Source of the DNA: an uncultured Elusimicrobia bacterium
GTDB lineage: Bacteria; Elusimicrobiota; Endomicrobiia; DTEH01
Length of the DNA stretch: 64,000 nt
Direction: 5' to 3'
Assembly: GCA_964561135.1 (NCBI GenBank)
Contig: CAZLOB010000022.1
Location: 5,718-69,717, forward strand
This document shows, piece after piece, positions 5,410-38,818 of the stretch; the stretch's first letter is position 1, and every line of letters starts with the position of its first letter. The translations under genes were made by a program, and so were the position numbers. Below the pieces are notes generated by a model, which ran no database searches, was not told where the DNA came from, and saw nothing but the letters and a program-made list of their open reading frames with translations.

Positions 5410-5419
5410 GTTTAAAACA

Positions 5420-12206: not shown

Positions 12207-13298
12207 ATGTTAGACAAAGAAATAATCAAAAATTGTGAACACTTAATTATAGAAAAAAAAGAGTTAGAACAAAAACTTGCTGATCCTAATATTATTAACA
12301 ACCAACAAGAATATCAAAATATTGTTGCTGAATACAACCGTGTCAACGAAATTGTTTCTGTATACTTACAAATTAAAGATTTGGAAAACAAAGTTGACGA
12401 ACTTAAAAAAGAATTAAAAAGTTCTACTGATACAGAATATAGTATGTTAGTAGAAGAAGAGATTGAAAAGTTGAGTAAAGAAACTGCTGAGTTAGAACAA
12501 AAATTGCTAGACCTTTTTCTACCCGAAGATCCTAACGAGAAAAAGAATGTGATACTTGAGATACGTGCAGGTACAGGCGGTGAAGAAGCAGCGTTGTTTG
12601 CATACGATTTGTTTAGGATGTACAGCAAATATTGTGCTAAAAAAGGCTGGAAAATAGAAGTTTTAGATATCAACCAGACGGAACTTAAAGGAATAAAGGA
12701 AGTTATATGTTATATTTCTGGTAAAGATGTATACAAATATTTACAGTTTGAAAGTGGAGTACATAGGGTTCAACGTGTACCTATAACAGAATCTTCCGGT
12801 AGAATCCACACTTCAGCTGCAACTGTTGCTGTTTTACCAGAAGCAGAAGATGTTGAGATAGAAATAAAACCTGACGATATTGAGATAGAAACATTTCGTG
12901 CTTCAGGTCATGGAGGACAACACTTACAAAAAACTGAATCTGCAGTAAGGATACGGCATAAACCAACAGGTATTGTTGTTCAATGTCAAGACGAACGTTC
13001 ACAATTAAAGAACCGTGAACGCGCATTAAAAATTTTAAAAGCAAGATTGTACGACTTAAAACTACAACAGCAACAACAAGAAATTGCTAAGTTAAGAAAA
13101 TCACAGGTAAAATCTGGAGACAGGTCTGAAAAAATACGGACATACAATTTTCCACAAAACCGTGTAACTGATCATAGAATAAATTTAACTTTATATAATT
13201 TACAAGAAGTTCTAGATGGTGAGTTAGACGAGATTATTGACAATTTAATCAAAGTTAGGCTGAAAGAAAAAATTGCTGAGTTTCTTTATAACAAATGA
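12207..13298 (+). CDS. prfA: Peptide chain release factor 1
   Basis: The PxT-region and GGQ motif ([11 protein letters not shown]) are present with RF1-class overall similarity, and prmC follows. Confidence 0.9.
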
Positions 13299-14144: not shown

Positions 14145-15428
14145 ATGGAAAAATATATAATTGAAGGTGGATACAGGTTACAAGGAAAAATAACTATCTC
14201 TGGTTCAAAAAATGCTTCATTACCTATCCTTATTGCTACATTATTAACAGATAACAAAGTTGTCCTTCATAATATACCAAAGTTGAAGGATGTTGAGACA
14301 ACAATTTCAATAATAGAATTTTTAGGGAAAAAAGTTATTTGGCAAAACAATTCCACATTAGTTGTTACACAAAACAAATCGCCAATAAAAGAAAAAGATT
14401 TTGTTGTAGCACCATATGAACTAATAAAAAAAATGAGGGCAAGTTTTCTTGTCTCAGGTGCGTTATTAGCAAATTATGAGAAAGTTAAGACAGCTTTACC
14501 AGGCGGATGTGCAATAGGTGTCCGCCCTGTTGATATTCATATTAAAGCTTTTGAAGATTTAGGTATTGAACATTATATAGATTCTGGATATGAAGTTTTT
14601 ATAAAGAAAAAAAACATACCTAAAAAAAGAGTGATAAAATTTCGTTATCCATCAGTTGGTGCTACAGAAAATGTTTTAATGTTTTTATCAAAAGTACCAA
14701 AACAAGTTACAATAGTAAACGCTGCGTGCGAACCTGAAATTGTAGACTTAGCAAACTTTTTAAAAAAATTAGGTGTAGAAATTGAAGGTGCAGGAACACA
14801 TGTTATAAAAGTTGTTGGTTGTAAAAAATTCATCTCAGGTGATATTGAACATACTGTAATACCTGACAGGATTGAAGCAGGAACATTTATTATAGCAGCA
14901 GCAATAACAAAAGGTGAAATAGAACTTTATAACATTCAACCTCAACATCTTACTTTTGTAATAAATAAATTGCGCAAGTGCGGATTAACAATTGAATTAG
15001 AAGATAACAAAATATATGTAGTATGGAAAAAAAACTTAAAGCCACAAAATATCATAACACGCCCTTACCCATATTTTCCAACAGACCTACAAGCACAATA
15101 TATGGCACTTATGTGTACATTAAAAGGAAGTTGTATAATAAAAGAAACTATTTTTGAGAATAGGTTTCTGCATGTTGGTGAACTTCTTCGTATGGGTGCA
15201 AACATCGTTGTTGAAGACCGAAAAGCAATAATTTATGGTGTTGAAAAACTTAAAGGTGCGGAGGTAATGGTTTCTGATTTAAGGGCAGGTGCTGGATTGG
15301 TATTAGCAGCGCTTGCAGCCGAAGGTATCTCAAAAATATCTCATATTTACCACCTTGATCGCGGATATGAAAAATTAGAAGAAAAAATTTCATCTTTAGG
15401 AGGAAAAATAAAACGTATTGATGAATAA
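14145..15428 (+). CDS. murA: UDP-N-acetylglucosamine 1-carboxyvinyltransferase
   Basis: MurA motifs are ISGSKNASLP, the catalytic Cys loop (LPGGCAIGVRPVDIH) and FPTDLQAQ. Length is 427 aa. Confidence 0.85.
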   Translation: MEKYIIEGGYRLQGKITISGSKNASLPILIATLLTDNKVVLHNIPKLKDVETTISIIEFLGKKVIWQNNSTLVVTQNKSPIKEKDFVVAPYELIKKMRASFLVSGALLANYEKVKTALPGGCAIGVRPVDIHIKAFEDLGIEHYIDSGYEVFIKKKNIPKKRVIKFRYPSVGATENVLMFLSKVPKQVTIVNAACEPEIVDLANFLKKLGVEIEGAGTHVIKVVGCKKFISGDIEHTVIPDRIEAGTFIIAAAITKGEIELYNIQPQHLTFVINKLRKCGLTIELEDNKIYVVWKKNLKPQNIITRPYPYFPTDLQAQYMALMCTLKGSCIIKETIFENRFLHVGELLRMGANIVVEDRKAIIYGVEKLKGAEVMVSDLRAGAGLVLAALAAEGISKISHIYHLDRGYEKLEEKISSLGGKIKRIDE

Positions 15429-18870: not shown

Positions 18871-20595
18871 ATGAAAAGGGGGAGAAAAAAGAAAGTTTTA
18901 CCACTAAAACCTATTGAGTTAATAAGTAACCAAATAAAAAAATCTCCAACCAGAGCGCCACACAGGGCACTTTTATATGCCACAGGTATTTCTTCATCAG
19001 ATTTATCCAAACCTTTTATTGGCATAGCGTCAGCATATAGCGATATTGTACCAGGTCATATACACCTTCGTGAGCTTGAACGATGGATTGAACGAGGTGT
19101 TGCAGAAGCAGGTGGTGTACCATTTGTCTTCGGTATACCAGGCATATGTGATGGTATTGCGATGGGTCATAGTGGTATGCATTATTCATTACCTTCAAGA
19201 GAACTTATTGCTGATTCTATTGAATCTATGGTAAAAGCACATTGCTTTGATGGTATTGTGTTGTTAACCAACTGTGACAAAATTACGCCTGGGATGATTA
19301 TGGGTGCAGTAAGAGTAAACGTTAACATACCAATGATAGTTGTGACAGGCGGTCCGATGCTTGCTGGATATTATAAAGGTAAAAGAAGATCGTTAGTAAG
19401 AGACACTTTTGAAGCTGTAGGCCTTTATGAAGCAGGCAAAATTTCGTTAGAAGAACTATACCAGCTTGAATGTGCAGCATGTCCAACAGCAGGTTCCTGC
19501 CAAGGACTTTATACTGCGAACACAATGGCATGTTTGTCTGAAGCAATGGGTTTATCATTACCATATTGTGCGACAACACCAGCTGTCTCTGCAGAGAAAA
19601 AACGTATTGCTTATGAATCAGGTAAACGTATTGTACAAATGGTTTATGAAAACTTAACTCCGTTAAAAATTTTGTCTTATAACTCAATTTATAACGCAAT
19701 TGTAGTTGATGCTGCACTCGGTGGTTCAACAAATACTATATTACATCTAAAAGCTATCGCATATGAAGCAGGGATTAGATTTGATTTAAAACTTTTTGAC
19801 GATGTTTCAAAAATTGTACCAAATATAGTAAGATTAGAACCCGCTGGTGATTATTATATGGAAGATCTACATAAAGCTGGCGGAATACCAGCGGTACTAA
19901 ACGTTTTACAAAAGTATCTCAAAAGTGCACTCACTGTTACAGGAAAAAATATTCTTGAGATTGCAAGTTTAGGAAAAGTTGAAGATGAAGAAATTATACG
20001 GTATAAAAACCCTTATTCTACTGAAGGTGGTTTAGCTATATTGTATGGCAACCTTGCACCAGAAGGTGCTGTAGTTAAACAATCAGCTGTTTTACCAAAT
20101 ATGAGGAAATTTGTTGGTCCTGCAGTAGTGTTTGATTCTGAACAATCTGCTATGAACGCTATTTTGAACAAAAAAATTAAAAAAGGTGATGTTATAGTGA
20201 TACGTTATGAAGGTCCTAAAGGTGGGCCAGGAATGAGGGAGATGTTAGGTCCTACAAGTGTTATTCAAGGAATGGGATTAGCTGATAAAGTAGCTTTAAT
20301 CACTGATGGTAGGTTCTCAGGTGGCACTCGGGGGCCGTGTATCGGCCATGTTTCACCTGAAGCTGCTGCTGGTGGACCTATTGGTGTGATCCAAAATGGT
20401 GATATAATCGAAATTGATATTCCAAACAGAAAACTTAATGTTCGTCTTACTGATACAGAACTTAACTCAAGGTTAGCAAAGTTTCAAGGTGAGCTTGAAA
20501 CAAGAGAAAAAAAGTTTAAAACAGGTTGGCTTGCAAGATATGTTGAATTTGTTACTTCTGCATCTGAAGGTGCTGTGTTAAAACCTAGAAAATGA
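18871..20595 (+). CDS. ilvD: Dihydroxy-acid dehydratase
   Basis: IlvD/EDD-family motifs are [23 protein letters not shown] and SGGT. An AGAGGGG RBS lies upstream. Confidence 0.85.
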
Positions 20596-21680
20596 AAGTT
20601 GTGCAATGGAATACAGCAAAAGTGTTAGGCGGCGCTGAATTAAGAACATTAGAACTTACAAAAGCTTTAATAAAAAAAGGTCATCAGGTATATATAATCT
20701 GTAGAAAGAATTCGTTCTTTGAAAATAAATTAAAACAAGAGCATATGAATATTATAGCTTACAAAAATCCATTTGTGGGATTCATTAAAATCTTAGTCTT
20801 TCTAAAAAATTGGAAACCAGATATTATTCATGTGCACTCAGGGAAAGATTATGCCATATCTATAATTCTAGGTATGTTAAACTCAATACCTGTTGTGATA
20901 CACAGGCGTCTTATGTCAAAAGTAAACCCAATAACTAAGTTTTTAATAAATAATTGGAAGACAAAAATTATCGCTATTTCAAAGGCTACAAAAGAAATTT
21001 TAATAAAAGAAAATAAATTTGAGGAAGAAAAAATAGAACTCGTATATAACGCAATACCACAAGAAAGATTAAAGTTTGACTCAGATAAAATAATCCAACT
21101 TCAACATCATTTTGATAAAAAAAATAAAAAAATTGATTTAAGTGTAGGTAATCTTTATCCTACAAAAGGATTTGAAGAATTAATAAAAGTTGCAAAAATC
21201 TTAAAAGAAAAAATAAAAAACTTGCTTGTTTTAATTGCTGGGGAGGGTGAAGAAAGAAAAAAATTGGAAAAATTAATAATCCAATACAATTTGTCTGACA
21301 CAGTTAAACTTTTAGGATTTAGGAATGATGTTATAGAATTGTTAAAAATTTGTGATTGTTTTGTATTGTTATCATATGAGGAACCTTTTGGAGTAGCATT
21401 TATTGAAGCGCTAGGGTGTGGGAAACCAGTGGTAGGGTATCGATGTGGTGGTCTCCCTGAGATAATTGCTGATAACGAAGTCGGGTATTTGGTTGAACCA
21501 CACGATATTAATGCTGTATGTGAAAAGTTAGAAAAAATTTTGCTTGATGAAGAACTTGCTAAAAAATTGGGCACAAACGCGAAAAGATATTTTGATTGTA
21601 AATTTAGTTTTAATAATATGATTGAAAAAATTGAAAATATATTCTACGAATTAAAAAATTTGACTAACAATAAGGAGTAA
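20592..21680 (+). CDS. Glycosyltransferase family 4 (GT-B, RfaB-like)
   Basis: The GT4 C-terminal signature is [25 protein letters not shown]. It is inserted between ilvD and ilvB. Confidence 0.7.
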
Positions 21681-24396: not shown

Positions 24397-25353
24397 ATGA
24401 ACTATGAACCTTATGTAGAAAAATGGTCTGCTGAAATAATTGAAGTTACAATAGGTGCAACAAGTCAGGATGGTGGTACAAGAAGTAAAGTTTTAAAAGT
24501 AGGTGGAGCAAAAACTTTACCTTTTTTAAATTTTGAAGGTGGTTCATCTAACAAACCGGCTGTCGTAGCTGAAGTTGTTGATTATTTACCTGAAGAGCTT
24601 TGGCCAATTTTCTATGAGAACTTAAAAGATATTGTATCTGATCCAATAAAATGGATAAAAGAAGTTGAAAAATTACAGCCTGATGCAATATGTATAAGAT
24701 TGTTATCATGCCATCCTGATATAAAAAACAATTCAGTTGATTATATTAAATCTTTTATACCTGAAGTTTTAAAAACAACTTCTTTACCACTTATAATTCT
24801 AGGTTGTGAACATATAGAACGTGATACAGAAATACTACCTGTTGTATGCGAACTTACAAAAGGGGAAAAAATTCTTGTAGGTATGGCAGTAAAAGAAAAC
24901 TATAAAACAATATCTTTATCAGCGTTTGCTTGTGGACATTCAGTAATTGCTCAAACACCACTTGATATAAATTTGGCTAAACAACTTAATATTTTAATAA
25001 ATGATGCTGGTGTCCCTCTCGACAGAATTGTTATGCATCATACAACTGGTGGGTTAGGCTATGGGTTTGAATATTGTTATTCTATTATGGAACGTTGTAG
25101 ACTTGCTGGCTTACAAGGTGATAGTGTAATGGCTACACCTATTATAAACCTTGTTGGAGAAGAAACTTGGAAAACAAAAGAAGCTAAAGCTACAGTTGAA
25201 GAAGAACCTCTCTGGGGAAATGATACAATAAAAAGGGGAATTATGTGGGAAACAACTACTGCGTTTGGTTACCTTCAAGCAGGAAGTGATATAGTTGTAT
25301 TAGTTCATCCTGAAAGTATTAAAAATGTGAAATCTTTTTTAAGTCAAACATAA
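24397..25353 (+). CDS. acsD: CO dehydrogenase/acetyl-CoA synthase delta subunit-like (corrinoid Fe-S protein small subunit, AcsD/CdhD family)
   Basis: The N-terminus VTIGATSQDGGTRSKVLKVGG..LPFLNFEG resembles what I recall of AcsD. It is a ~320-aa TIM-barrel-sized protein, and no acsC partner is adjacent. Confidence 0.5.
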   Translation: MNYEPYVEKWSAEIIEVTIGATSQDGGTRSKVLKVGGAKTLPFLNFEGGSSNKPAVVAEVVDYLPEELWPIFYENLKDIVSDPIKWIKEVEKLQPDAICIRLLSCHPDIKNNSVDYIKSFIPEVLKTTSLPLIILGCEHIERDTEILPVVCELTKGEKILVGMAVKENYKTISLSAFACGHSVIAQTPLDINLAKQLNILINDAGVPLDRIVMHHTTGGLGYGFEYCYSIMERCRLAGLQGDSVMATPIINLVGEETWKTKEAKATVEEEPLWGNDTIKRGIMWETTTAFGYLQAGSDIVVLVHPESIKNVKSFLSQT

Positions 25354-25381: not shown

Positions 25382-26041
25382 ATGATAGATAAAAAATTTA
25401 TAAAGGGCATAATAGAAACACTAATTTTTATCGCAGATAAACCGTTAAGTATATCAAAGATTGTAGAACTTATCAACGAGCCCGAAGTTGATGAATCTGT
25501 CGTTAAAGAATTAATAACTGATTTGCAAACAGAATATATAAACCGTTCTGCAATAGAAATAAGAGAAGTTGCTGGTGGCTACCAGATGGCTACAAAACCT
25601 GAATTCTCAGAATATGTAAGAAGGTTATATCAAGATAGGACATTGTTAAGACTATCTCCTGCTGCTGTTGAAACATTAGCAATCATCGCTTATAAACAAC
25701 CTATAACAAAAGCAGAAATAGAAGAAATACGCGGTGTTGATTGTACAACTGTGTTAGAAACACTTCTTCAACGTAGACTTATAAAAATTGTTGGTAGAAA
25801 AGAAGTTGTTGGTAAACCGTTATTGTACGGTACGACACAAGAATTTTTAAAATATTTTGGGATAAACTCACTTAATGATCTACCACCTATTGAACAATTT
25901 GTTGAACAAGCAACACAAGAACAACTTCCAACTCAAGAAAATGTAGAAACTGTAGGTACAGAACCTACAATATCAATTTCGACAAGCGAAGTAACTGTTG
26001 ACCAAACGACATCTGCCCAAAATGATAAACAGCAAGAATAA
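25382..26041 (+). CDS. scpB: Segregation and condensation protein B
   Basis: The tandem winged-helix ScpB pattern is present (IEALIFIADKPLS ..., ITKAEIEEIRGVD) with an acidic C-terminal tail. Confidence 0.75.
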   Translation: MIDKKFIKGIIETLIFIADKPLSISKIVELINEPEVDESVVKELITDLQTEYINRSAIEIREVAGGYQMATKPEFSEYVRRLYQDRTLLRLSPAAVETLAIIAYKQPITKAEIEEIRGVDCTTVLETLLQRRLIKIVGRKEVVGKPLLYGTTQEFLKYFGINSLNDLPPIEQFVEQATQEQLPTQENVETVGTEPTISISTSEVTVDQTTSAQNDKQQE

Positions 26042-26981
26042 TTTAGGTATTTCAACTATTTACTTTTATAAAGAAATCGTTAAAAGAAGCATTAATTGGC
26101 AACAAATTAAAGAGAAATTGTACCAACTTGGTTTATCCGCTGTAGAACTTAACGCTGATGTACCTATTGAATGGTTTAAAGAAATACAAAAAGATGTAAA
26201 TGAAGGCGAAATAAGAATTCTTTCTTTACACAATTTTTGTCCTTCAGTAGAAAATATTCCTAAAGGAAAGTATGGTTTTAATGCATTTTCTTTAACATCT
26301 ACTGATGAAGAAGAACATAAACTTGCAATAAAGTATACATTAAGAACTATTGATTATGCACAAATTGTTAACAGTAATATCGTAGTAGTACATTTAGGCG
26401 AAATTGTGACACAACCTTCTTCAGACGAAGTATACAAAATTGCTAAAGAATTTGGACCCACTTCAGAAATTTATCAAAAATATAAACAATCACTAATATC
26501 CTCTCGGTTACAAAACAAACAAAAATATTTTGATTTGTTAAAAAAAACAATTGATATAATTCTACCTTATGCAGAAAGTAAAAAAGTTAGTATTTGTATA
26601 GAAACACGGTTTTTCCCTAACGAAATACCTAATTTTGAAGAGTTTGCTGAAATTTTTGAATGTTATAAAAATGATTATTTACGCTACTGGCACGATTTTG
26701 GACATGTAGAGATACAAACAATTTTTGATTTTGAAAAAGGACATAAAATATTTTTTGATACATATGGAAACTACTTATCTGGGTATCATATACATGGGGT
26801 AAAAAATTTTGTCGACCATTTTGTTCCATTACCAGAAACACAACCCGATTATAAAAAATTGTTAAACTATCAAGAAAACAAGATATATGTATTAGAAGTA
26901 CATCCAAAAGAAAGTTTTGATAATCTAATTAAAGGAGTAAAATATATAAAATCGTTACTTAACGGAGGACGAAATGCGTGA
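26022..26981 (+). CDS. Sugar phosphate isomerase/epimerase family protein (xylose isomerase-like TIM barrel)
   Basis: TIM-barrel AP-endonuclease-2/xylose-isomerase-like fold signatures are VVHLG, CIETR and WHDFGH. The start is chosen at the first ATG (26022) and overlaps the scpB end. Confidence 0.55.
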   Translation: MINSKNNLGISTIYFYKEIVKRSINWQQIKEKLYQLGLSAVELNADVPIEWFKEIQKDVNEGEIRILSLHNFCPSVENIPKGKYGFNAFSLTSTDEEEHKLAIKYTLRTIDYAQIVNSNIVVVHLGEIVTQPSSDEVYKIAKEFGPTSEIYQKYKQSLISSRLQNKQKYFDLLKKTIDIILPYAESKKVSICIETRFFPNEIPNFEEFAEIFECYKNDYLRYWHDFGHVEIQTIFDFEKGHKIFFDTYGNYLSGYHIHGVKNFVDHFVPLPETQPDYKKLLNYQENKIYVLEVHPKESFDNLIKGVKYIKSLLNGGRNA

Positions 26982-27969
26982 ATTTCGTCGCGATCTTATA
27001 ACAGGTAGGTGGATAATAATATCCACAGAACGAGCAAAACGACCATTCGCTTTTGTTAAATACCCACGTGAAATTGACGATGTTGATACATGTCCATTTT
27101 GTTCGGGCAACGAAAAATTTACACCGCCGGAAATTGTTGCCTATAGACCACAAAATACGCAAAAAGATACTCCTGGGTGGCAAGTAAGAACCATACCAAA
27201 CAAGTATCCAGCATTACGTGTTGAAGGTGAAGTTATAAAATCTGCCTGTGGTATATACGATTGTATTACAGGTATAGGAGCTCATGAAGTTATTATAGAA
27301 ACGCCACACCATGATAAGGATATCTACCAACTTGAACTAAACAATATTATTGATATTTTTAGAATGTATAAAGAGAGGATTGAAGATCTTAAACGTGATA
27401 TAAGATTTGAATATATATTAGTATTTAAAAACTGTGGAAAAAATGCTGGTGCTACACTATCACACCCTCATTCACAACTTATTGCATTACCTATGATACC
27501 AATAATAATCCAACAAGAACTTGAAGGTGCCAAAAAATATTATGAATTTAAAGAACGATGTGTGTATTGTGACATAATTAACGAAGAATTAAAAACTAAC
27601 TTGCGTGTTGTAACAGAAAATGATGATTTTATAGCAATATGTCCGTATGCAAGTAGATTTCCGTTTGAAGTTTGGATTTTACCAAAACGACATGACCCTA
27701 TGTACGAAGATATACATTATAACGAACTTAAAAATTTAGCTTCTATTATGAAAATTATTAATAGGAAATTAAATCTAGCTTTAGAAAATCCACCGTATAA
27801 CTATTTACTTCACACTTCTCCTTTGAAACATTCTAATTTACATCATTATCATTGGCATATAGAAATTATTCCAATACTGACAGGAATAGGCGGATTTGAA
27901 TGGGGGACAGGGTTTTATATTAATCCTGTTGAACCAGAAGAAGCAACAAAGTTTCTACAACAAACATGA
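26974..27969 (+). CDS. Galactose-1-phosphate uridylyltransferase-like HIT-family nucleotidyltransferase (GalT class I)
   Basis: It has the zinc-site CPFCSGNE and an HxHxQ active-site motif (SHPHSQ). Length is 331 aa. Confidence 0.7.
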   Translation: MREFRRDLITGRWIIISTERAKRPFAFVKYPREIDDVDTCPFCSGNEKFTPPEIVAYRPQNTQKDTPGWQVRTIPNKYPALRVEGEVIKSACGIYDCITGIGAHEVIIETPHHDKDIYQLELNNIIDIFRMYKERIEDLKRDIRFEYILVFKNCGKNAGATLSHPHSQLIALPMIPIIIQQELEGAKKYYEFKERCVYCDIINEELKTNLRVVTENDDFIAICPYASRFPFEVWILPKRHDPMYEDIHYNELKNLASIMKIINRKLNLALENPPYNYLLHTSPLKHSNLHHYHWHIEIIPILTGIGGFEWGTGFYINPVEPEEATKFLQQT

Positions 27970-30149
27970 GCCAAGAAAAAAATCTTATTGACCAACTACT
28001 GAGAACTTTTAAAATGACAATAATAAATATAAAAATTTACCCTATTAACAACCCGTTGATAGAAAAACAGATTTCTGAACTATTTGCTGTTTTAAAACAA
28101 ATTTTGCAAAAAGAAACAATTTTAACAATCTCAGAAATCGATAATAAAATATTTATAAACGACAAAGAGTATTTAGGGAAAGATCCTACATCTATTGCAA
28201 ACATAACTTCTATTACACAATTTTTTTTACAAACAGGGATTAAAAGTATAACTTTTAAAAAAGAAATTGAGTTAGACGAACTTAAAAACTTACTTTTAGC
28301 AATGTCTATCAAAAAACCTAAAGTATCAACCAAAGAAATTGTTAACCAGATAATTAAAGAAAAAAATATAAAAAATATTGCTATTGATGAAATTGAATAT
28401 ATTACAATAACAAAATCTGACCAAACAGCAAAATCAATCTTAAATCTTATTTCACAACCTGTATCAAATTTGTCAGAACTTATCAACATATTAGGAACAA
28501 GTTTTAATGAACTTGATAAAATCAAAGATGAAAAAACTAAAAAAAATCTTACTGACGCTATTGTAAAATACTTGTCATCATTGGATATTAATCTTATAAA
28601 AGAGTTGTTTATTCAACCATTACCACAAAAAATTGAACAAACCGGTATCAAACAATTGTTGTTTAATAAACTAACGAAACAAACTGTTGAAGAAATTTTT
28701 AACGAAATAATATCTTGGTGTAAACAACTAAAATCAAAAGTTGAAAGTGAAACTGAATATATTGAACAACTACAAAATTTGAAAGAGTTTATAAAACTTG
28801 TAATAAACTCGCCTGTAAGTAAACTTGTGCCGATAGAAGTTTTTGAAGAATTGTTTAAAATAGGACTTATTGACGCACTACCTGAATGGATATTAGAACA
28901 AAAAAAAGAAAAAAAATCGTGGATTGCACAACTTGACGAGTTGTTGTCCACTAACGAACCAGTAAAATTGTTACAAGAAAAATTTTTAGATAATTTACAA
29001 GAGAATATAGAAAAGTTATGTTTAATTGGTCTTGACGATAAACTTGATAGATTAGTATATTTAATGACAGAAAATTTTTCAAATCCTATAGTGAAACTTA
29101 GACAACTCGCAGCATCTACTACTGAAAATATTGCGAAACAGTTAACAAAGTTTCAAAAAGGAAAAATTGCAAAAAATCTTGTAAGCAACATTTTAAAATT
29201 TTTAATAAAAGAACAAGATGAAACTGTAGTTAAATTACAAATACAAGCCCTTGAACACTCATTGTGTTGTTTAATAATCAATGATGACTATAAATCGTTT
29301 GTTGAATATTCACAACAATTATTACAATTTGCTGAAGAACTCATAAAAGTTAATCCTGAAAAATCAAAGTTAATTTATTTTTTACTTGATAAAGTTTATC
29401 AACAAACTAAAGATTTTATATTATCAGATTTAGCAGATCCTAAAGACAACCTTAATGAAATTATATGGTTTTTAACTTATGTAGCAGAACAATCTATTGA
29501 TATTTTGTTGTCTGCAATCATGAATACAAACAACATAAATATAACCAATATTTTAGTAAAAGTTCTGTTATCATTAAAAGATCAAAAACAAGTAATAGAT
29601 TCTATTGAACAACTTATTGTGCCTCAAACTCCTGTATATAAACTTAGCAAAATTTTAGAAATACTACCAAAATTTGACTATGATTTTTCTAATTCACTAA
29701 GAAATCTTTATAATTACACAAACTATGCTAACAAAATCGCTATATTAAATTATATCCAAGAAAGACCTACAGAAGAAAACCTACAATGGCTTACATCTTT
29801 ATTAACGATAGAAGACCCTCAAATACTTCAGTATATTATTGACATACTAACATTTTTAGATTACAAACCCGCTGCAGAAAAAATTATTAAATTGTTAAAA
29901 ATGAAAGATATAGATGTTAAAAAACGTGTGTGTATATCTGTTGGTATGCTGAAATATATTGGCGCAATAAAAAAACTTAAAAAAATACTTAAATCAAAAA
30001 AAGAAAATATAGATGTACGTATAGCAGCATGTTGGTCATTAGGTAATTTTATAACTTTACCAGAAGTAAAATCTTATTTACAGAATGTTGCCAAAAAAAT
30101 AAAAGAACCTACAATTTTAAATGTAATACAAGAAATACTAAACAAATAA
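27966..30149 (+). CDS. Large HEAT/ARM-repeat protein (C-terminal PBS-lyase-type HEAT-like repeats); function unknown
   Basis: The 727-aa protein is all-alpha and repetitive. The C-terminus carries E/Z-type HEAT repeats (DVKKRVCISVGMLKYIGA...DVRIAACWSLGNF). Its start overlaps the galT-like stop (ATGA). Confidence 0.55.
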   Translation: MSQEKNLIDQLLRTFKMTIINIKIYPINNPLIEKQISELFAVLKQILQKETILTISEIDNKIFINDKEYLGKDPTSIANITSITQFFLQTGIKSITFKKEIELDELKNLLLAMSIKKPKVSTKEIVNQIIKEKNIKNIAIDEIEYITITKSDQTAKSILNLISQPVSNLSELINILGTSFNELDKIKDEKTKKNLTDAIVKYLSSLDINLIKELFIQPLPQKIEQTGIKQLLFNKLTKQTVEEIFNEIISWCKQLKSKVESETEYIEQLQNLKEFIKLVINSPVSKLVPIEVFEELFKIGLIDALPEWILEQKKEKKSWIAQLDELLSTNEPVKLLQEKFLDNLQENIEKLCLIGLDDKLDRLVYLMTENFSNPIVKLRQLAASTTENIAKQLTKFQKGKIAKNLVSNILKFLIKEQDETVVKLQIQALEHSLCCLIINDDYKSFVEYSQQLLQFAEELIKVNPEKSKLIYFLLDKVYQQTKDFILSDLADPKDNLNEIIWFLTYVAEQSIDILLSAIMNTNNINITNILVKVLLSLKDQKQVIDSIEQLIVPQTPVYKLSKILEILPKFDYDFSNSLRNLYNYTNYANKIAILNYIQERPTEENLQWLTSLLTIEDPQILQYIIDILTFLDYKPAAEKIIKLLKMKDIDVKKRVCISVGMLKYIGAIKKLKKILKSKKENIDVRIAACWSLGNFITLPEVKSYLQNVAKKIKEPTILNVIQEILNK

Positions 30150-30150
30150 A

Positions 30151-30699
30151 ATGTTAAAAATTTTGTTGTTAATTTATATATTTTACAACTACATCTTCTC
30201 TCAACAAAATACCAACTTGATACAAAACAAATTCATTGATTTTGAGCTTCCATCTATATCAACATACAATATAAAACTGTCAGATCTTGTAGGTAAAAAA
30301 CTTATTTTATTAAACTTTTGGACAACATGGTGCCCATATTGTAAACAAGAAATTCCACGTCTTATAACACTCGCTAATAAATATAAAGATAAAAATTTAG
30401 AAATAATTGGAATCAATATTCGTGAACCAGAAAAAATGGTTAAAAAGTTTGCAGAAAATAAACAAATAAATTATACAATTGTATTAGATACAGCAGCAGT
30501 AGTTGCAAAAAAATACAATATCAAAGGAATACCAACAAATTTTATTATAAACAAAGAAGGGAATATAGTTTTTGTAGGGCCCTTACTACCTACCGAAGAA
30601 ATTATAATTAAAAATTTAATTGAGTTTGAGAAAAAAGAAGTAGAAACAAATAAAAAGAGAAAAAAAAGATTAAAGGGAAAAACCAAGATTGTCTATTAA
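30151..30699 (+). CDS. TlpA/ResA-like secreted thiol-disulfide oxidoreductase (thioredoxin fold)
   Basis: An N-terminal signal/anchor precedes the thioredoxin motif WCPYC. A K-rich C-terminal tail follows. Confidence 0.7.
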   Translation: MLKILLLIYIFYNYIFSQQNTNLIQNKFIDFELPSISTYNIKLSDLVGKKLILLNFWTTWCPYCKQEIPRLITLANKYKDKNLEIIGINIREPEKMVKKFAENKQINYTIVLDTAAVVAKKYNIKGIPTNFIINKEGNIVFVGPLLPTEEIIIKNLIEFEKKEVETNKKRKKRLKGKTKIVY

Positions 30700-34086: not shown

Positions 34087-36789
34087 ATGAAAGAATTACA
34101 AGAAATTAATCTTACACCTTTAATGAAACAATACCACCAAATAAAACAACAATATAAAGATTGTATACTAATGTTTCGTCTAGGCGATTTTTATGAAATG
34201 TTTGGTGAAGATGCGATAAAATCAGCGCCTGTTTTAGGTGTTGTTTTAACAAAGAGGCAAGGGGTACCAATGTGTGGTGTCCCATTCCACAGTGTTAACA
34301 ACTATATCTCAAAACTTCTTAATTGTGGATTCAAAGTTGCTATATGTGAACAAGTCGAAGATCCAAAACTTGCAAAAGGTGTAGTTAAAAGAGAAGTGGT
34401 AAGAGTTATAACTCCAGGAACAATTATTGAAGAAAATCTTCTTGATGCTAAAAAAAATAATTTCTTGACTTCTATAAATTTTGCTTTTGTCAAAAACAAA
34501 CTTTGTTTTGGTATTGCTAATGTTGATATTTCAACAGGTGATTTTTTAGTCACTCAATTTGAAGACCAAAATAGTTCCAAAATTATAGATGAGTTAATCA
34601 GGATCTCACCTTCTGAAATTGTTGCAAAAGAAACACAAAAAGAAGAAATTATCAAAATTGTAAAACAATACAAAGAAGTACATATAGAATTTTTAGAAGA
34701 TTGGTTCTTTGATGTATTAACAGCTGTAGAAAGAATTAAAGAGTATTATAAAATTTATTCTCTTGAAACATTTGGACTTGATATGACGAAACATGCAATT
34801 TTATTATCTTCTGTAGGCGGGTTATTAGAATACTTAAATAGGACACAAAAAAAATTGATACCAAAATTAAAAGGAATAAAATTTTATAACTTAGATGACT
34901 ACTTGTTTATGGACAGCAGCTGTATAAGAAATTTGGAGTTAGTAGAAAATCTTTATGATAGGACACAAAAAAATACTTTACTTGATGTTATCGACAAAAC
35001 ACAGACAGCCCAAGGTGCAAGATTATTACGAAGTTGGTTATTAAAACCATTAAAAGATGTAAAAGAAATTAATAATCGTTTATTAATTGTAGAAATGTTT
35101 TATAACGATGATACAAACAGACAAAAACTCAAAGATATTCTACGAAACATAGCAGATATTGAAAGAATAACAAATAGAATCACATCAAAAAATGCAACAC
35201 CAAAGGATCTTATCACACTAAAAGAATCTTTAGAATTAATACCTGAAATTAAAACATTATTACAACATATAATAAATTCTCAATTTGTTTTAAAACTTGA
35301 CGAACTACACAAAATGATCGATATTCCCGAATTAGAAGAAGTTAAACAACTTATAGAAAATAGTATAGTACCGGACGCGCCTACTGATATAAAAAAAGGA
35401 GGAGTTATCAAAAAAGGGTTTAATAAAGAACTTGATGAAATTAGAGAACTTTATTCTTCATCAAAAGAATGGTTGTTAAACTATCAAGAAGAACAACGAC
35501 GAAAAACACAAATACAGTCATTAAAAGTTGGATATACTTCTGTCTTCGGGTATTATATAGAAGTTACAAAATCTAATTTACATCTAATACCAAAAGAATA
35601 CATTAGGAAACAAACATTGAAAAATGCAGAACGGTTCACAACGCCTGAATTACAAGATTTTGAAAACAAAATCCTTTCAGCTGAAGAAAAAATTTTAAAT
35701 CTAGAAGAATATCTTTTCAATTCTGTAGTTGAACAAGTTGGACAATATGCTGAACAACTATATGAAGTAAGTTATAAGATAGCTTTAATAGATGTGTTTA
35801 GTAACCTTGCTGAAGTTGCAAAAAGAAATAATTATAAAAAACCTATTGTAGATGATTCATATATTATTGAATTAAAATCTTGTCGTCATCCTATAGTAGA
35901 ACAAATATTGCCTTACGGAAAGTTTATACCAAATGATGTATACCTTGACGGAGACAATGTAAAACTTATAATTTTAACAGGTCCTAATATGGCTGGAAAA
36001 TCAACTTATATAAGACAGGTTGCGTTGTGCACAATCTTAGCACAAATGGGAAGTTTTGTGCCAGCTGAATATTCACGTATAGGTGTTGTGGACAAAATTT
36101 TTGCTCGTATAGGTGCAGCTGATTATTTAGCAAAAGGATTGTCAACATTTATGGTTGAAATGCAAGAAACTGCTAATATACTTCATAATGCTACTGATAG
36201 AAGTTTGATAATTTTAGACGAAGTTGGACGTGGGACATCAACTTATGATGGTATCTCTATTGCTTGGGCTGTGATAGAATATCTTGTTAACAAACAAAAT
36301 TGGCCGAATAAAACCCATTGCCCTAAAACTTTGTTTGCTACACATTATTTTGAACTTACAGAACTTGAACAAAGGTATACTGGGATTAAAAATTTTAATG
36401 TTGCTGTTAAAGAATATAAAGACGAAATTGTATTTTTGTACAAAGTTATTGAAGGTTGTTCAGATAAATCTTATGGAATACATGTAGCAAAACTTGCTGG
36501 TATACCACAACAAGTTGTTAACCGGGCAAATATATTATTAAAATATTTACTTAACGCTGCTGCAAACATTGATAAAGCAACCAAATCTAAAAGTGTACAA
36601 CTACAACTAATCCATATTACTGAACAAAAAGAACAAGAAAAAAATTTTTTTAATGAAATATTGGTAAATCTAAAAAAAATTGATATAAACAAAATTACAC
36701 CATTAGATGCGTTTAATTTGTTACTACAATGGAAAAAAATGATAGAACAAAATACACAGGACCGGAACGACGAAAATATAAACGGTTAA
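34087..36789 (+). CDS. mutS: DNA mismatch repair protein MutS
   Basis: The 900-aa protein has an N-terminal mismatch-binding motif (GDFYEMFGEDA), Walker A GPNMAGKST, and DE(V)GRGTSTYDG. Confidence 0.9.
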   Translation: MKELQEINLTPLMKQYHQIKQQYKDCILMFRLGDFYEMFGEDAIKSAPVLGVVLTKRQGVPMCGVPFHSVNNYISKLLNCGFKVAICEQVEDPKLAKGVVKREVVRVITPGTIIEENLLDAKKNNFLTSINFAFVKNKLCFGIANVDISTGDFLVTQFEDQNSSKIIDELIRISPSEIVAKETQKEEIIKIVKQYKEVHIEFLEDWFFDVLTAVERIKEYYKIYSLETFGLDMTKHAILLSSVGGLLEYLNRTQKKLIPKLKGIKFYNLDDYLFMDSSCIRNLELVENLYDRTQKNTLLDVIDKTQTAQGARLLRSWLLKPLKDVKEINNRLLIVEMFYNDDTNRQKLKDILRNIADIERITNRITSKNATPKDLITLKESLELIPEIKTLLQHIINSQFVLKLDELHKMIDIPELEEVKQLIENSIVPDAPTDIKKGGVIKKGFNKELDEIRELYSSSKEWLLNYQEEQRRKTQIQSLKVGYTSVFGYYIEVTKSNLHLIPKEYIRKQTLKNAERFTTPELQDFENKILSAEEKILNLEEYLFNSVVEQVGQYAEQLYEVSYKIALIDVFSNLAEVAKRNNYKKPIVDDSYIIELKSCRHPIVEQILPYGKFIPNDVYLDGDNVKLIILTGPNMAGKSTYIRQVALCTILAQMGSFVPAEYSRIGVVDKIFARIGAADYLAKGLSTFMVEMQETANILHNATDRSLIILDEVGRGTSTYDGISIAWAVIEYLVNKQNWPNKTHCPKTLFATHYFELTELEQRYTGIKNFNVAVKEYKDEIVFLYKVIEGCSDKSYGIHVAKLAGIPQQVVNRANILLKYLLNAAANIDKATKSKSVQLQLIHITEQKEQEKNFFNEILVNLKKIDINKITPLDAFNLLLQWKKMIEQNTQDRNDENING

Positions 36790-37100
36790 AAATTTTTCAT
36801 CTTTCTATACCCATAGTCCTAAAAACTAATACTGAAGATTTATCATTTCCAGGGATACTTTTAGACATCTCTGCTAATGGGATAGGAATTCTTACTTTTA
36901 AAGAAATACCTGTTAACACTATTGTCAATTTACAAATTAATTTACATCAGATAAAAACTGATTGTATTAAAGCAAAAGTTGTATGGACAAAACAATTAGA
37001 TAAAACATATAGAGCTGGGTTACAATTTATAGAAATTTCAAAGAAAGATTTTGAACAAATATCAGATTATGTTGAACAACATCTAATGGAAGATTTTTGA
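36729..37100 (+). CDS. PilZ domain protein (predicted c-di-GMP receptor)
   Basis: Both PilZ signature motifs are present: RRxxxR (ERRKYKR) near the N-terminus and DxSxxG (DISANG). It overlaps the mutS 3' end by ~60 nt in another frame, and its stop overlaps the mutL start. Confidence 0.7.
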   Translation: MEKNDRTKYTGPERRKYKRLKIFHLSIPIVLKTNTEDLSFPGILLDISANGIGILTFKEIPVNTIVNLQINLHQIKTDCIKAKVVWTKQLDKTYRAGLQFIEISKKDFEQISDYVEQHLMEDF

Positions 37101-38818
37101 CTATGACCAAAATTAAGATCTTACCACCTGAGGTTTATACACGTATCGCAGCAGGTGAAGTTGTTGAACGACCATCTAATGTTGTCAAAGAACTTGTAGA
37201 AAATAGTATTGATGCTAACGCCACTGAAATAACAATAGAAATTGTTTCTTCTGGAAGGAAACTTATTCGTGTAGCAGATAACGGTTGCGGTATGACAAAA
37301 GATGATCTGTTATTATCAGTTAAACCACATGCTACAAGTAAAATAGAAAAATTTGAAGATATATATAGTTTAACAACTTTAGGATTTCGTGGAGAAGCCT
37401 TAGCTTCAATTTCAAATGTTTCTAAACTTACAATTATTTCAAAAACAGAAGAACAACCTCTCGGATACCAAATCGTTGTTCATGGTGGAGAAATTATATC
37501 AGTAAAAGAATGTTCATGTAATAAAGGAACGATTGTTGAAGTTAAAGATTTGTTTTACAACACTCCTGCAAGACTTAAATTTTTAAAATCTGATTATACA
37601 GAAAAAGTACATGTTACACGTACTGTTGAAGAATATGCAATTGCCTATCCTGAAATTTCGTTTAAGTTCTATTCAGATAACGAACTTGTCTTTTCAACAG
37701 AAGCTACCACAAAACTTGTTAGTAGATTAAAAGATATTATAAAAAAAGATATTGTGAAAGACATGTTATACATTGCTCATACTGAAGATAACATTTGTAT
37801 CTACGGATTTATAACACCGATAGAATTTACACAAGTTAACAAATCTTTACAAATGTTTTATGTTAACAAAAGACCCGTTACTTTACGTATTTTATCACAA
37901 GCGTTATATGATGCATACAGGGATAGTTTACCTACTGGTAGACATCCTGGAGCGGTTATTTTTATCAATATCTCGTCAGATTTGATTGATGTTAATGTAC
38001 ATCCAACAAAACGTGTTATAAAGTTTAAAGATGAAGATTATGTATATGAAACACTTAAAAATTTGTTCAAAAAAACATTAAAAGAATATTACACTAAAAC
38101 ATATAAAATTGAAACTGGACAACCAATACAAACTTTAACAATAACACAAAAAGAAAAACAACTAACAGAAACAAAAGTTGAACAAAAACAAACAGAGTTG
38201 GAATTACGGTATGAACAACCTATTTTAAACTATGAAAAACTTGGACTACAAAATTTTGTATATTTGGGTCAACTACATAGAACATATCTGTTGTTTGAAA
38301 CACAAGAAGGTTTGTTATTAATAGACCAACATGCAGCAAGTGAACGTATACTTTTTGAAAAATTTATGAAATCAAAAAATGTCCAAATACAGAAATTGCT
38401 TATTCCATTAAATATAGAACTAAAACCCTCAGATTTTGAATCTATAAAGCCATATATAGACCTACTTAATACTTTAGGGTTTGAAGTAACAATTTCTGGT
38501 AAGAGTTCAATAGGGTTTGCTAGTATTCCATCATTATTCAATATACAAGATGTGAAAGATTTTATTCTAAGATTTATAGAAAATCTTATGGAAGATATAA
38601 AAAATGAAATTAATAATGTTACTCCTAAAGAAAAAATTATCCGTAGTGCATGTCGTGCTGCAATAAAAGCTAATGAACTATTAGCAATATCTGAAGTTAA
38701 TGCTTTAATATCAGATTTGTCTAATTGTGAACAACCTTTTTTTTGTCCTCATGGTAGACCTACTATAATCAAACTTGAGTTAGAAAAAATTGAAAAACTT
38801 TTTTCACGACGTAAATGA
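37097..38818 (+). CDS. mutL: DNA mismatch repair protein MutL
   Basis: GHKL ATPase motifs (ELVENSIDA, DNGCGM, GFRGEAL) are present with a C-terminal dimerisation domain. The C-terminal region CPHGRP resembles the MutL endonuclease-type zinc motif. Confidence 0.85.
   Translation: MTMTKIKILPPEVYTRIAAGEVVERPSNVVKELVENSIDANATEITIEIVSSGRKLIRVADNGCGMTKDDLLLSVKPHATSKIEKFEDIYSLTTLGFRGEALASISNVSKLTIISKTEEQPLGYQIVVHGGEIISVKECSCNKGTIVEVKDLFYNTPARLKFLKSDYTEKVHVTRTVEEYAIAYPEISFKFYSDNELVFSTEATTKLVSRLKDIIKKDIVKDMLYIAHTEDNICIYGFITPIEFTQVNKSLQMFYVNKRPVTLRILSQALYDAYRDSLPTGRHPGAVIFINISSDLIDVNVHPTKRVIKFKDEDYVYETLKNLFKKTLKEYYTKTYKIETGQPIQTLTITQKEKQLTETKVEQKQTELELRYEQPILNYEKLGLQNFVYLGQLHRTYLLFETQEGLLLIDQHAASERILFEKFMKSKNVQIQKLLIPLNIELKPSDFESIKPYIDLLNTLGFEVTISGKSSIGFASIPSLFNIQDVKDFILRFIENLMEDIKNEINNVTPKEKIIRSACRAAIKANELLAISEVNALISDLSNCEQPFFCPHGRPTIIKLELEKIEKLFSRRK

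Follow-up and report, generated by a model that had tools for sequence, protein, structure and literature searches.

The locus examined here raises the question of whether four closely packed genes, encoding a xylose-isomerase-like TIM barrel, a GalT-like transferase, a 727-residue HEAT-repeat protein and a TlpA-like redoxin, work together or merely lie together. They are found in a 64,000-nucleotide stretch of DNA from an uncultured bacterium of the class Endomicrobiia (Elusimicrobiota), hereafter the window. A first-pass annotation had viewed them as a sugar-nucleotide/sugar-phosphate module coupled to a large scaffold protein. That proposal fares poorly on neighborhood conservation, and we found no evidence of a dedicated pathway; in our judgment the four genes probably do not make up a dedicated module. 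The best overall explanation, which we hold to be somewhat better than an even bet, is that the block belongs to a string of housekeeping genes and that its HEAT protein is a signaling adaptor or sensor.

Gene packing and conservation of gene order

Comparison with Pfam and NCBIfam recovers the four ORFs of the earlier description, namely a TIM barrel of the AP_endonuc_2 type, a HIT transferase resembling class-I GalT, the HEAT protein of 727 aa and a CxxC redoxin of the TlpA/ResA kind, and the original gene-by-gene family calls prove right at the superfamily level (Table 1).

Table 1. Features of the locus, in window coordinates
Feature	Position	Strand	Evidence or remark
scpB (SMC-ScpAB subunit B)	25382..26041	+	PF04079 E 2e-57; TIGR00281 149 bits
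TIM barrel, AP_endonuc_2 / xylose-isomerase-like	26022..26981	+	ATG start; longest ORF from alternative TTG 25998
Class-I GalT-like HIT nucleotidyltransferase/phosphorylase, 331 aa	26974..27969	+	PF01087 + PF02744
HEAT protein, 727 aa	27966..30149	+	PF13646 at residues 638-711
HEAT protein, N-terminal alpha/beta domain (aa 1-140), invariant Tyr25-Pro26	27966..28385	+	
HEAT protein, conserved helical middle (aa ~151-340), including FEELFKIG	28416..28985	+	Invariant columns, alignment A1
HEAT protein, C-terminal HEAT/ARM solenoid (aa ~341-727, stop included), PBS-lyase-type repeats last	28986..30149	+	
Exported (probable) TlpA/ResA-like thiol-disulfide oxidoreductase, WCPYC	30151..30699	+	PF00578, PF08534, PF13905

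The four ORFs are genuine genes and probably co-transcribed. They make up the 3′ end of a series of about 30 housekeeping genes that all point the same way, lie close together and are unrelated in function; the Endomicrobiia genome that carries them is small and AT-rich. Across nearly the whole set of window ORFs, Pfam reveals a mixed housekeeping content, comprising aro, his, leu and ilv genes, folD, cdhD, scpB and panC, together with trxA, comF, miaB, mutS, mutL and fts/mur genes. The reported absence of the Leloir partners galK and galE is borne out: neither these nor any glg or pgm genes were found by Pfam among nearly all window ORFs of at least 90 aa, three short ORFs being left out. Promoter and terminator scans returned signals at background level.

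Overlaps had been reported at every junction of the block. Read directly, the TIM/GalT junction (ATGCGTGA) is an 8-nt overlap and the GalT/HEAT junction (ATGA) a 4-nt overlap, but the HEAT/TlpA junction reads TAA-a-ATG, a 1-nt spacer with neither overlap nor TGA, so that the description holds for two of the three internal junctions. The placement of the unit's start at position 26022 has to be abandoned, because the last 20 nt of scpB are shared with the TIM gene; no clear 5′ limit to the block can be drawn, and the co-directional unit begins further upstream. At the opposite end, the TlpA-like gene overlaps the convergent panC gene by 30 nt. The packing of the block does not exceed the local norm: the coding share of the window is roughly 97%, and its 63 same-strand neighbor pairs show a median gap of 2 nt, with 28 pairs overlapping and 47 within 10 nt. 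As an operon the block is ordinary, and it illustrates how little start/stop overlaps in so streamlined a genome reveal about function.

The order scpB-TIM-GalT-HEAT is kept in about 15 Endomicrobiia loci and was found in this class only; at all Endomicrobiia loci examined TIM, GalT and HEAT remain neighbors, even where identity of the HEAT protein falls to 46%. Together with the two real overlaps, this constant adjacency is what speaks for a single functional operon of four genes, in which the HEAT protein would scaffold or regulate a sugar-phosphate/nucleotide-sugar pathway that includes the redoxin. Several observations set against it render this reading improbable. Overlapping genes are commonplace in this genome, and the overlap at the 5′ end ties scpB to the TIM gene as well. 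The flanking panC, trxA and comF genes are also kept in most of the same loci and, more broadly, the order of folD, cdhD, scpB, panC, trxA and comF is mostly preserved across Endomicrobiia, with lineage differences such as folD-cdhD or trpS-scpA upstream. Because the order of most housekeeping genes on either side is likewise maintained, the adjacency of the block is explained by descent; the neighborhood is kept only where its flanks mostly are, and not, as would be expected of a conserved functional operon, where synteny is otherwise lost. Furthermore, the TlpA-like gene is absent from three to four Endomicrobiia loci (L001/L013, L015 and L017) and present at the others, making it a variable member of the block that is dispensable in sister lineages, and the fusion partners of the HEAT family, described below, are signaling domains rather than carbohydrate enzymes.

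Conservation of the four-gene neighborhood across genomes, put forward as a check on the original proposal, does not extend beyond Endomicrobiia, the block being absent from all loci sampled outside the class (two contexts for GalT, two for TIM and six for HEAT), where scpB-GalT is the only pair of these genes to co-occur. That pair lies on a non-Endomicrobiia Elusimicrobiota contig (L008) that reads trpS-scpA-scpB-GalT followed by unrelated genes, with neither TIM nor HEAT, and on a Calditrichaeota contig (L009) the GalT gene precedes a GT5 glycogen synthase. Two distant TIM homologues are set among unrelated housekeeping strings without GalT, and the flanks of six more distant HEAT homologues (L012, L021, L022, L023, L030 and L032) contain neither GalT nor TIM. 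A TIM gene between scpB and GalT, and a HEAT gene after GalT, occur in Endomicrobiia only. The scpB-GalT adjacency appears to be the older arrangement, and the scpB-TIM-GalT-HEAT(-TlpA) order looks like a lineage-specific juxtaposition. Given that core adjacency is kept while TlpA and upstream genes vary, and that the ATGA overlap permits translational coupling, a functional link specific to this lineage is possible.

Predicted activities of the TIM, GalT-like and TlpA-like proteins

The GalT-like enzyme carries both GalT half-domains in tandem (PF01087, 54.3 bits against a cut-off of 22.1; PF02744, 52.0 against 29.2), which places it in the class-I GalT group, branch III of the HIT superfamily, and contains the motifs CPFCSGNE and SHPHSQ. 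It passes the broader TIGR00209 model (129.8 against 102.1). Identity as an E. coli-type GalT was rejected, with 148 bits for the NF008724 equivalog against a cut-off of 448 and neither galK nor galE among the window ORFs scanned. The best solved relative is the plant protein At5g18200 (PDB 1z84; E 6e-77), and its 262 bits, compared with 95 for E. coli GalT, favor the earlier suggestion of a UDP-/ADP-hexose phosphorylase as the predicted activity. CPFC (residues 40-43), His104 and SHPHSQ (172-177) are matched by identical residues in the alignment to 1z84, accounting for the zinc site and the nucleophilic histidine. The predicted reaction would be NDP-hexose + Pi <-> hexose-1-P + NDP, proceeding via a histidine-nucleotidyl intermediate, and the enzyme may serve alpha-glucan or nucleotide-sugar metabolism. 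Its sequence proximity to At5g18200 makes the window enzyme a candidate ADP-glucose phosphorylase (ADP-glucose to glucose-1-P + ADP), for which the adjacency of glgA to the Calditrichaeota orthologue is circumstantial evidence. Its best 120 listed homologues are 54-91% identical and include several named from other phyla, with 54-60% identity across phyla. They outline a widespread bacterial clade nearest to the plant protein, whose role in bacterial alpha-glucan metabolism is apparently uncharacterized in the literature found.

The TIM protein scores 50.7 bits against PF01261 (AP_endonuc_2; cut-off 31.1) and is predicted to be a metal-dependent enzyme of the AP_endonuc_2 / xylose-isomerase-like superfamily. 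Its close clade (44-94% identity) consists of Endomicrobia/Elusimicrobiota wherever members are annotated by name, and other phyla contain homologues of 35% identity or less. Across 23 homologues, the invariant or near-invariant residues are E42, H70-N-F-C-P74, H124, E194, R196, D225, H228, H256, H258, D265, H266 and E292. Specific sugar-phosphate isomerases and epimerases (IolO, UlaE, DTE and others) were considered and rejected: the best NCBIfam score is about 16 bits where cut-offs lie at 105-300, no NCBIfam equivalog was matched, and a search of the PDB with the family profile matched UlaE and DTE only at E >= 0.004.

The intact catalytic-type residues of both proteins, their 8-nt gene overlap and the exact placement of the TIM gene between scpB and GalT, as against the direct scpB-GalT succession of L008, would suit a working pair in Endomicrobiia, for instance with a metal-dependent isomerase or phosphodiesterase step before or after nucleotidyl transfer, and with the HEAT and TlpA-like proteins as bystanders. 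We regard such a pair as rather unlikely, though less so than the four-gene operon: the GalT-like enzyme, well conserved across phyla, has no member of this TIM clade beside it in either of the contexts sampled outside Endomicrobiia, the two distant TIM homologues do without GalT, and the NCBIfam scores assign no substrate to the TIM protein.

The description of the last gene product as a secreted TlpA-like CxxC oxidoreductase stands as regards its AhpC-TSA/Redoxin fold, its WCPYC motif and its hydrophobic N-terminus, and the protein is probably exported. A more specific assignment does not follow, with ResA at 112.6 bits against a cut-off of 170, TlpA at 48.7 against 230, and all specific NCBIfam models, including DsbE, below their cut-offs.

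The HEAT protein and its family

The HEAT protein had been described as all-alpha with PBS-lyase-type repeats at its C-terminus. The second part of this description is confirmed; the first is not, given that residues 1-140 form an alpha/beta domain. This N-domain is modeled confidently and contains a Tyr25-Pro26 pair that is invariant in alignment A2 and nearly so in A4; it matched no Pfam model, and structure searches returned no solved relative. The middle region is dense in family-invariant positions, with a consensus that persists in a 27-sequence diverse alignment, and is modeled by AF2 with lower confidence (pLDDT 57-85). The HEAT_2 and HEAT_PBS repeats build an alpha-solenoid of the PBS-lyase type. 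Remote homology and structure prediction, recommended at the outset, hence identify the solenoid as generic HEAT and leave the N-domain without a solved counterpart; sequence-level matches in the PDB are to designed alphaReps only. No signal peptide was detected.

Searches with a profile of the HEAT family return 1276 representatives (50%-identity clusters) at E <= 1e-3, 400 of them at E <= 1e-10. Many matches run end-to-end over 700-770 aa, dozens span profile positions ~5-738 in a single stretch, and an HMM of the N-domain matches nearly all of those end-to-end proteins, delineating a shared architecture of 'YP' domain plus HEAT. Apart from HEAT repeats, no Pfam model and no NCBIfam model covers the family, and we found no literature on it or on the GGDEF + AAA_16 + HEAT architecture. 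Judged by these profile matches, the window protein is a member of a large uncharacterized family and not a lone orphan.

Among the best 150 of the 1276 representatives, 98 are stand-alone, 36 carry GGDEF + AAA_16, 10 AAA_16 only, 2 cNMP-binding + PilZ and 1 Pkinase + GGDEF + AAA_16. The module makes up the C-terminal half of GGDEF + AAA_16 ATPase proteins of about 1400 aa, and the N-terminal part of those ending in cNMP-binding + PilZ. Named GGDEF + AAA_16 + HEAT proteins come from Desulfobacterales metagenomes and are annotated just as 'diguanylate cyclase (GGDEF)-like protein'. These fusions suggest a signaling adaptor or sensor. Sampled neighborhoods of the family, most of whose members are stand-alone, are heterogeneous; at L021 the second gene upstream of the HEAT homologue encodes a GAF-HD-PilZ protein. 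In the window, Pfam detects no GGDEF, EAL, HD-GYP or PilZ domain in the HEAT protein itself, and a PilZ gene that stands alone is found 6.6 kb further downstream.

With the fusions in distant relatives and one neighboring gene as its basis, a signaling role for the HEAT protein is put forward tentatively, at somewhat less than even chances. The protein would act as a cytoplasmic, non-enzymatic adaptor or sensor that recognizes a ligand or another protein and relays its bound state to cyclic-di-GMP/cyclic-nucleotide signaling components supplied in trans. A bolder and more doubtful proposal is that 'YP' domain, helical middle and HEAT repeats together form an unrecognized input/adaptor module of cyclic-di-GMP/cyclic-nucleotide signaling, with an N-domain fold absent from the PDB. 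Copies that stand alone, like the one in the window, would then work in trans, with diguanylate cyclases, STAND-like ATPases or PilZ receptors as their targets, and in Endomicrobiia they might link the signal to the adjacent GalT-like alpha-glucan enzyme.

Two further roles for the HEAT protein draw on its neighbors. Its location near scpB, which lies upstream of the block in all Endomicrobiia loci ("two genes upstream"), and weak Pfam Cnd1 matches in relatives (e.g. P0222, E 4e-4) could be explained by an accessory subunit of the SMC-ScpAB condensin akin to the HEAT subunits of eukaryotic condensin. We consider this extremely improbable: Cnd1 similarities are generic to HEAT repeats, in other Elusimicrobiota neither scpA nor scpB is found in the vicinity of the HEAT homologues, and L008 retains scpA-scpB-GalT with no HEAT gene. 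A cofactor-handling or redox-linked chaperone in the style of the PBS-lyase E/F proteins, paired with the neighboring thioredoxin-fold protein, would account for the thioredoxin-fold gene that follows HEAT both in the window (TlpA-like) and at the distant L022 (a cytoplasmic Trx). This is very unlikely as well. The TlpA-like protein is probably exported but the HEAT protein has no signal peptide, the TlpA gene is missing at several loci, and the L022 order HEAT-trx...miaB...mutS resembles the HEAT...trxA...miaB-mutS order of the window, which suggests old synteny rather than function. Identity as a bilin lyase (CpcE/CpcF) was rejected, with only 14-17% identity over 130-144 residues; we also take the host to be non-photosynthetic. 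The interest of the family lies in its size, in its pairing of a confidently modeled domain lacking a solved structural relative with a HEAT solenoid, and in its fusions to GGDEF, AAA_16, cNMP-binding and PilZ domains, from which new inputs to cyclic-di-GMP signaling could be sought and tested.

Comparison with known systems

Among solved structures, the TIM-family profile best matches that of MJ1311 from Methanocaldococcus jannaschii (PDB 3wqo; E 8e-13). This protein belongs to the same PF01261 superfamily but aligns well over only part of the barrel (profile positions 160-296) and is itself uncharacterized. It has reportedly been described as D-tagatose-3-epimerase-like. The order H-H-E-D-H-H-D-H-E of the histidine-rich invariant set in the window family recalls the nine metal ligands of the trinuclear zinc site of Endo IV, and hhalign against E. 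coli Nfo (Endo IV) gives a probability of 3%, with the C-terminal third alone aligned. MJ1311 has been listed as a predicted Endo IV homologue (PMC2770678).

The window GalT-like enzyme aligns end-to-end with At5g18200 (1z84/2h39; residues 3-330 versus 24-347) and shares with it the CPFC zinc motif, the histidine of GxHxV, the SHxHSQ nucleophile motif, the length class and both half-domains. The plant protein was reportedly characterized as an ADP-glucose phosphorylase by McCoy and colleagues in 2006; its window relative is a bacterial enzyme and a candidate phosphorylase, and a glycogen synthase adjoins the orthologue in one other phylum but not in the window. With ResA/TlpA oxidoreductases, the TlpA-like protein shares a thioredoxin fold, WCxxC, an N-terminal hydrophobic anchor or signal and a similar size; it differs from ResA, TlpA and DsbE in scoring below the family cut-offs and in having no cytochrome c maturation genes nearby.

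For the HEAT protein, likeness to CpcE/CpcF bilin lyases, E. coli YibA and designed alphaReps is at the level of fold and repeat (12-20% identity), and nothing in these proteins corresponds to its N-domain or its middle region. The GGDEF + AAA_16 + HEAT proteins (for example P0222, P0226 and P0251) are distant, about 20-30% identical over the N-domain, of which most hold two copies where the window protein has one, and they add the GGDEF and ATPase domains that it does not have. Yet their C-terminal ~750 residues hold the same module: the 'YP' alpha/beta domain is matched with E-values from 1e-13 to 1e-26, and the HEAT region matches profile positions ~340-737.

Gene junctions and packing

Pfam and NCBIfam searches bore out the four labels assigned in the first-pass annotation (TIM barrel, GalT-like, HEAT and TlpA-like), as well as its remark that Leloir partners are absent, with Pfam scans of nearly every ORF in the window returning no galK, galE, glg or pgm. 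The claim that the genes overlap at every junction stood in part: direct reading of the sequence places an 8-nt overlap between TIM and GalT (ATGCGTGA) and a 4-nt overlap (ATGA) between GalT and HEAT, whereas HEAT and TlpA are joined by a non-overlapping TAA-a-ATG. With these corrections, the four-gene observation is real. The scpB gene in turn overlaps TIM by 20 nt by the same reading, and the block therefore lacks a natural 5′ boundary at 26022. On the opposite side, TlpA-like and panC are convergent and their 3′ ends share 30 nt (30670-30699), leaving no space for an intergenic terminator.

The window is AT-rich (25-34% GC), and the GC minimum among its 2-kb bins lies at the HEAT gene (28001-30000; 25.3% versus an average of ~29%). 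A packing census based on the longest non-overlapping ORFs over the whole window yielded 67 genes and ~97% coding sequence, with genes 1-30 all on the plus strand. Among same-strand neighbour pairs, 28/63 overlap and 47/63 lie at most 10 nt apart, the median gap being 2 nt. Since overlaps are the local norm, they provide no evidence for a dedicated operon. Scans for promoters and terminators did not rise above the background given by shuffled sequence (73 versus 66 ± 8 and 5 versus 4 ± 2, respectively), and PADLOC returned a generic HIT match and no other defence-system match.

The Pfam scan of nearly every ORF revealed mixed housekeeping functions, including pstA/pstB/phoU, prfA/prfB, aro and his genes, leuA, ilvD, a GT4 glycosyltransferase, ilvB, folD, cdhD and scpB, then panC, trxA, comF, miaB, mutS, a PilZ protein, mutL, miaA, hflX, gpsA and purH on the other side of the block, and a minus-strand fts/mur cluster. 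The GT4 gene, lodged between ilvD and ilvB and overlapping ilvD by 4 nt, is a further case of unrelated genes in one tight string. The cdhD/acsD gene stands alone between folD and scpB, an order also found in most Endomicrobiia loci, and no further CODH/ACS subunits occur among the scanned window ORFs. Both EPSP_synthase-family genes and both release-factor genes fall within the same co-directional string.

Coordinates of the four genes and of other features in the window
Feature	Position	Strand	Assignment
Class-I release factor	3281-4342		presumably prfA or prfB
EPSP_synthase family	8783-10075		presumably aroA or murA
Class-I release factor	12207-13298		presumably prfA or prfB
EPSP_synthase family	14145-15428		presumably aroA or murA
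GT4-family glycosyltransferase	20592-21680	+	
cdhD/acsD	24397-25353	+	acetyl-CoA decarbonylase/synthase delta subunit; NF003376, 366 bits
scpB	25382-26041		
TIM barrel	26022 (ATG) to 26981; longest ORF from TTG 25998	+	PF01261
GalT-like	26974-27969	+	PF01087 + PF02744, with CPFCSGNE and SHPHSQ
HEAT protein, 727 aa	27966-30149	+	PF13646 at residues 638-711
Thioredoxin-fold TlpA-like	30151-30699	+	AhpC-TSA/Redoxin, WCPYC, hydrophobic N-terminus
mutS	34087-36789		
PilZ, 123 aa	36729-37100	+	PF07238, E 2e-16
mutL	37097-38818		

Conservation of the neighbourhood

All HEAT protein homologues retrieved by word-indexed search were 46-100% identical, and those named were labelled Endomicrobia, Endomicrobiia or Elusimicrobiota. 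In the more divergent Endomicrobiia loci, identity was 46-57% for HEAT versus 72-78% for GalT and 64-78% for scpB. Scans of genome and metagenome contigs yielded mainly close Endomicrobiia relatives, and twelve window genes were placed by tblastn on ~15 distinct loci of this clade. The order scpB-TIM-GalT-HEAT is kept in all ~15; most loci also keep the unrelated downstream flank panC(-), trxA(-) and comF, and carry folD-cdhD upstream. In the deepest-branching loci (L002/L018), trpS-scpA takes the place of folD-cdhD and comF is missing, while TlpA is missing from L001/L013, L015 and L017. Conservation of the block is largely region-wide synteny inside one class. A functional link among TIM, GalT and HEAT specific to the Endomicrobiia lineage is conceivable, given that no other part of the block is as stable as these three genes and that GalT and HEAT have an ATGA in common; a TIM-GalT enzyme pair would be its more plausible version.

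Outside Endomicrobiia the genes separate. A contig from another Elusimicrobiota lineage (L008, 5675-7996) carries trpS-scpA-scpB-GalT followed by unrelated genes, with neither TIM nor HEAT. The trpS-scpA-scpB prefix of L008 recurs in L002, the deepest locus within Endomicrobiia, and TIM therefore seems to have been inserted after scpB and GalT had become neighbours. On a Calditrichaeota contig (L009), the genes following GalT encode a GT5 glycogen synthase and a HAD phosphatase. Two TIM homologues that are only distantly related (≤35% identity; one annotated as Caldiserica) lie amid translation and repair genes. Neither GalT nor TIM occurs in the flanks of six HEAT homologues that are full-length but more distant (L012, L021, L022, L023, L030 and L032). 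The first-pass annotation had proposed an uncharacterised four-gene operon to be checked through its conservation across genomes; with overlaps being the local norm and the block conserved, among the loci sampled, only in one class, that proposal is not supported, and the result amounts in substance to the lack of a conserved neighbourhood that the annotation had named as refuting it.

In L022 (7001-16277) the HEAT homologue (25% identity) precedes trx and, further downstream, miaB and mutS. This order echoes the HEAT...trxA...miaB-mutS succession of the window, perhaps as a vestige of an older gene order that would account for the thioredoxin neighbours without a functional link. A function as a bilin-lyase-like or redox chaperone, to which thioredoxin-fold neighbours might point, is unlikely, as the resemblance between L022 and the window argues for old synteny instead. 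It is likewise unlikely that the HEAT protein acts as a condensin accessory, a role brought to mind by the proximity of scpB and having generic HEAT similarity as its sole basis.

The HEAT protein and its family

The HEAT protein had been described as all-alpha, a description at odds with its AlphaFold2 model (21-sequence alignment; mean pLDDT 85). In the model, residues 1-140 fold into an alpha/beta domain, residues ~150-340 into a helical middle of lower confidence and residues ~340-727 into a HEAT solenoid (pLDDT >90). Modelled alone, the N-domain reached a pLDDT of 94 and a pTM of 0.86. Profile search of PDB sequences with the HEAT protein recovered designed alphaReps only, PDB searches with the N-domain gave no match, and no Pfam model covers it. 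The N-domain is a separable module, named here the YP domain after Tyr25-Pro26, which is invariant in 31 diverse copies. An HMM of residues 1-150 matches nearly all family members, and the domain occurs in tandem duplicate in most ~1400-aa relatives (e.g. P0226, at 664-800 and 854-974). The middle region contains a dense cluster of positions conserved family-wide.

When 1.84 billion cluster representatives were searched exhaustively with an HMMER profile, 1276 matched the family at E ≤ 1e-3, and 400 still did so at a threshold of E ≤ 1e-10. Dozens of 700-770-aa proteins gave an end-to-end match, the nearest named ones coming from other Elusimicrobiota. Two 746-aa Syntrophales proteins (P0028/P0029) were rejected as distant orthologues, with ~20% of the query covered and an unrelated context. 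Among the best 150 of the 1276 representatives, 98 are stand-alone proteins (≤900 aa), 36 combine GGDEF, an AAA_16 ATPase and the YP/HEAT module, 10 combine AAA_16 with the module, one adds Pkinase to GGDEF, AAA_16 and the module, two join the module to cNMP-binding and PilZ domains, and three exceed 900 aa but showed no extra domain. The named GGDEF + AAA_16 fusions stem from Desulfobacterales. AGDEF replaces GGDEF in 29 of 32 fusions (P0222, P0226, P0251 and 29 others; ~1200-1500 aa), a crude N-terminal regex check found no RxxD I-site in the fused GGDEF domains, and Walker A is intact in the four AAA_16 domains sampled. The AAA_16 gene following GalT in L008 was considered as a split counterpart of the ATPase in such fusions and rejected, BLASTP showing no significant similarity (best E 0.008 over 55 residues); tblastn located no AAA_16, GGDEF or glgA genes in the window.

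In L021, from Elusimicrobiota MAG GCA_043826435.1, a GAF-HD-PilZ gene (4925-6616) lies second upstream of a stand-alone HEAT gene; by accession numbering, this MAG appears to carry a second family paralogue (P0205). The window harbours its own stand-alone PilZ gene 6.6 kb downstream of HEAT, between mutS and mutL and overlapping both in its longest ORF. It probably denotes cyclic-di-GMP use by the host genome, and its product is a candidate partner of the HEAT protein. As independent links, the fusions, the L021 GAF-HD-PilZ gene and the window PilZ gene make a signalling role the best available hypothesis. Under this tentative proposal, extrapolated from distant fusions and held at somewhat less than even confidence, the HEAT protein would be a protein- or ligand-binding input/adaptor module in cyclic-di-GMP/cyclic-nucleotide signalling. 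Literature searches returned nothing relevant on HEAT proteins of Endomicrobium or on a GGDEF + HEAT + STAND architecture.

The two enzymes and their known relatives

Close TIM homologues (44-94% identity) are annotated as Endomicrobia/Elusimicrobiota where named, with distant relatives elsewhere. The histidine-rich set E42, H70, H124, E194, R196, D225, H228, H256, H258, D265, H266 and E292 is invariant or near-invariant in 23 homologues, and TIM therefore looks like an active metalloenzyme. Their order resembles that of the nine metal ligands in Endo IV; an hhalign comparison with the E. coli enzyme, Nfo, gave a probability of 3%. No curated NCBIfam equivalog matched TIM. By profile, its best solved relative is the uncharacterised MJ1311 (E 8e-13), listed as a predicted Endo IV homologue (PMC2770678). 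A role as a sugar-phosphate isomerase is therefore only one among several possibilities.

For the GalT-like enzyme, the best 120 of at least 8000 scored matches in the word-indexed search were 54-91% identical, those named coming from Elusimicrobiota, Calditrichaeota and Bryobacteraceae. Literature searches on bacterial ADP-glucose phosphorylase or GalT + glycogen synthase returned nothing relevant, the mention of "ADP-glucose phosphorylase" that was found concerning glgC. Among solved structures, the closest relative is Arabidopsis At5g18200 (1z84), which matches end to end at 262 bits (E 6e-77) and lines up with the enzyme at the zinc CxxC, at the GxHxV histidine and at the nucleophile motif HxHxQ, in contrast to only 95 bits against E. 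coli GalT; the E. coli-type GalT equivalog model likewise scores far below its cut-off (148 versus 448 bits). At5g18200 is reportedly an ADP-glucose phosphorylase, in work attributed to McCoy and colleagues in 2006. Fold and motifs are read directly from these alignments; as for the substrate, kinship with At5g18200 and the adjacency of glgA in L009 lead us to infer NDP-hexose phosphorolysis. The most likely reaction, NDP-hexose + Pi <-> hexose-1-P + NDP, would belong to the metabolism of alpha-glucans or nucleotide sugars. All four genes are new representatives of superfamilies already known, and the noteworthy remainder is an uncharacterised YP-domain + HEAT family with signalling fusions.
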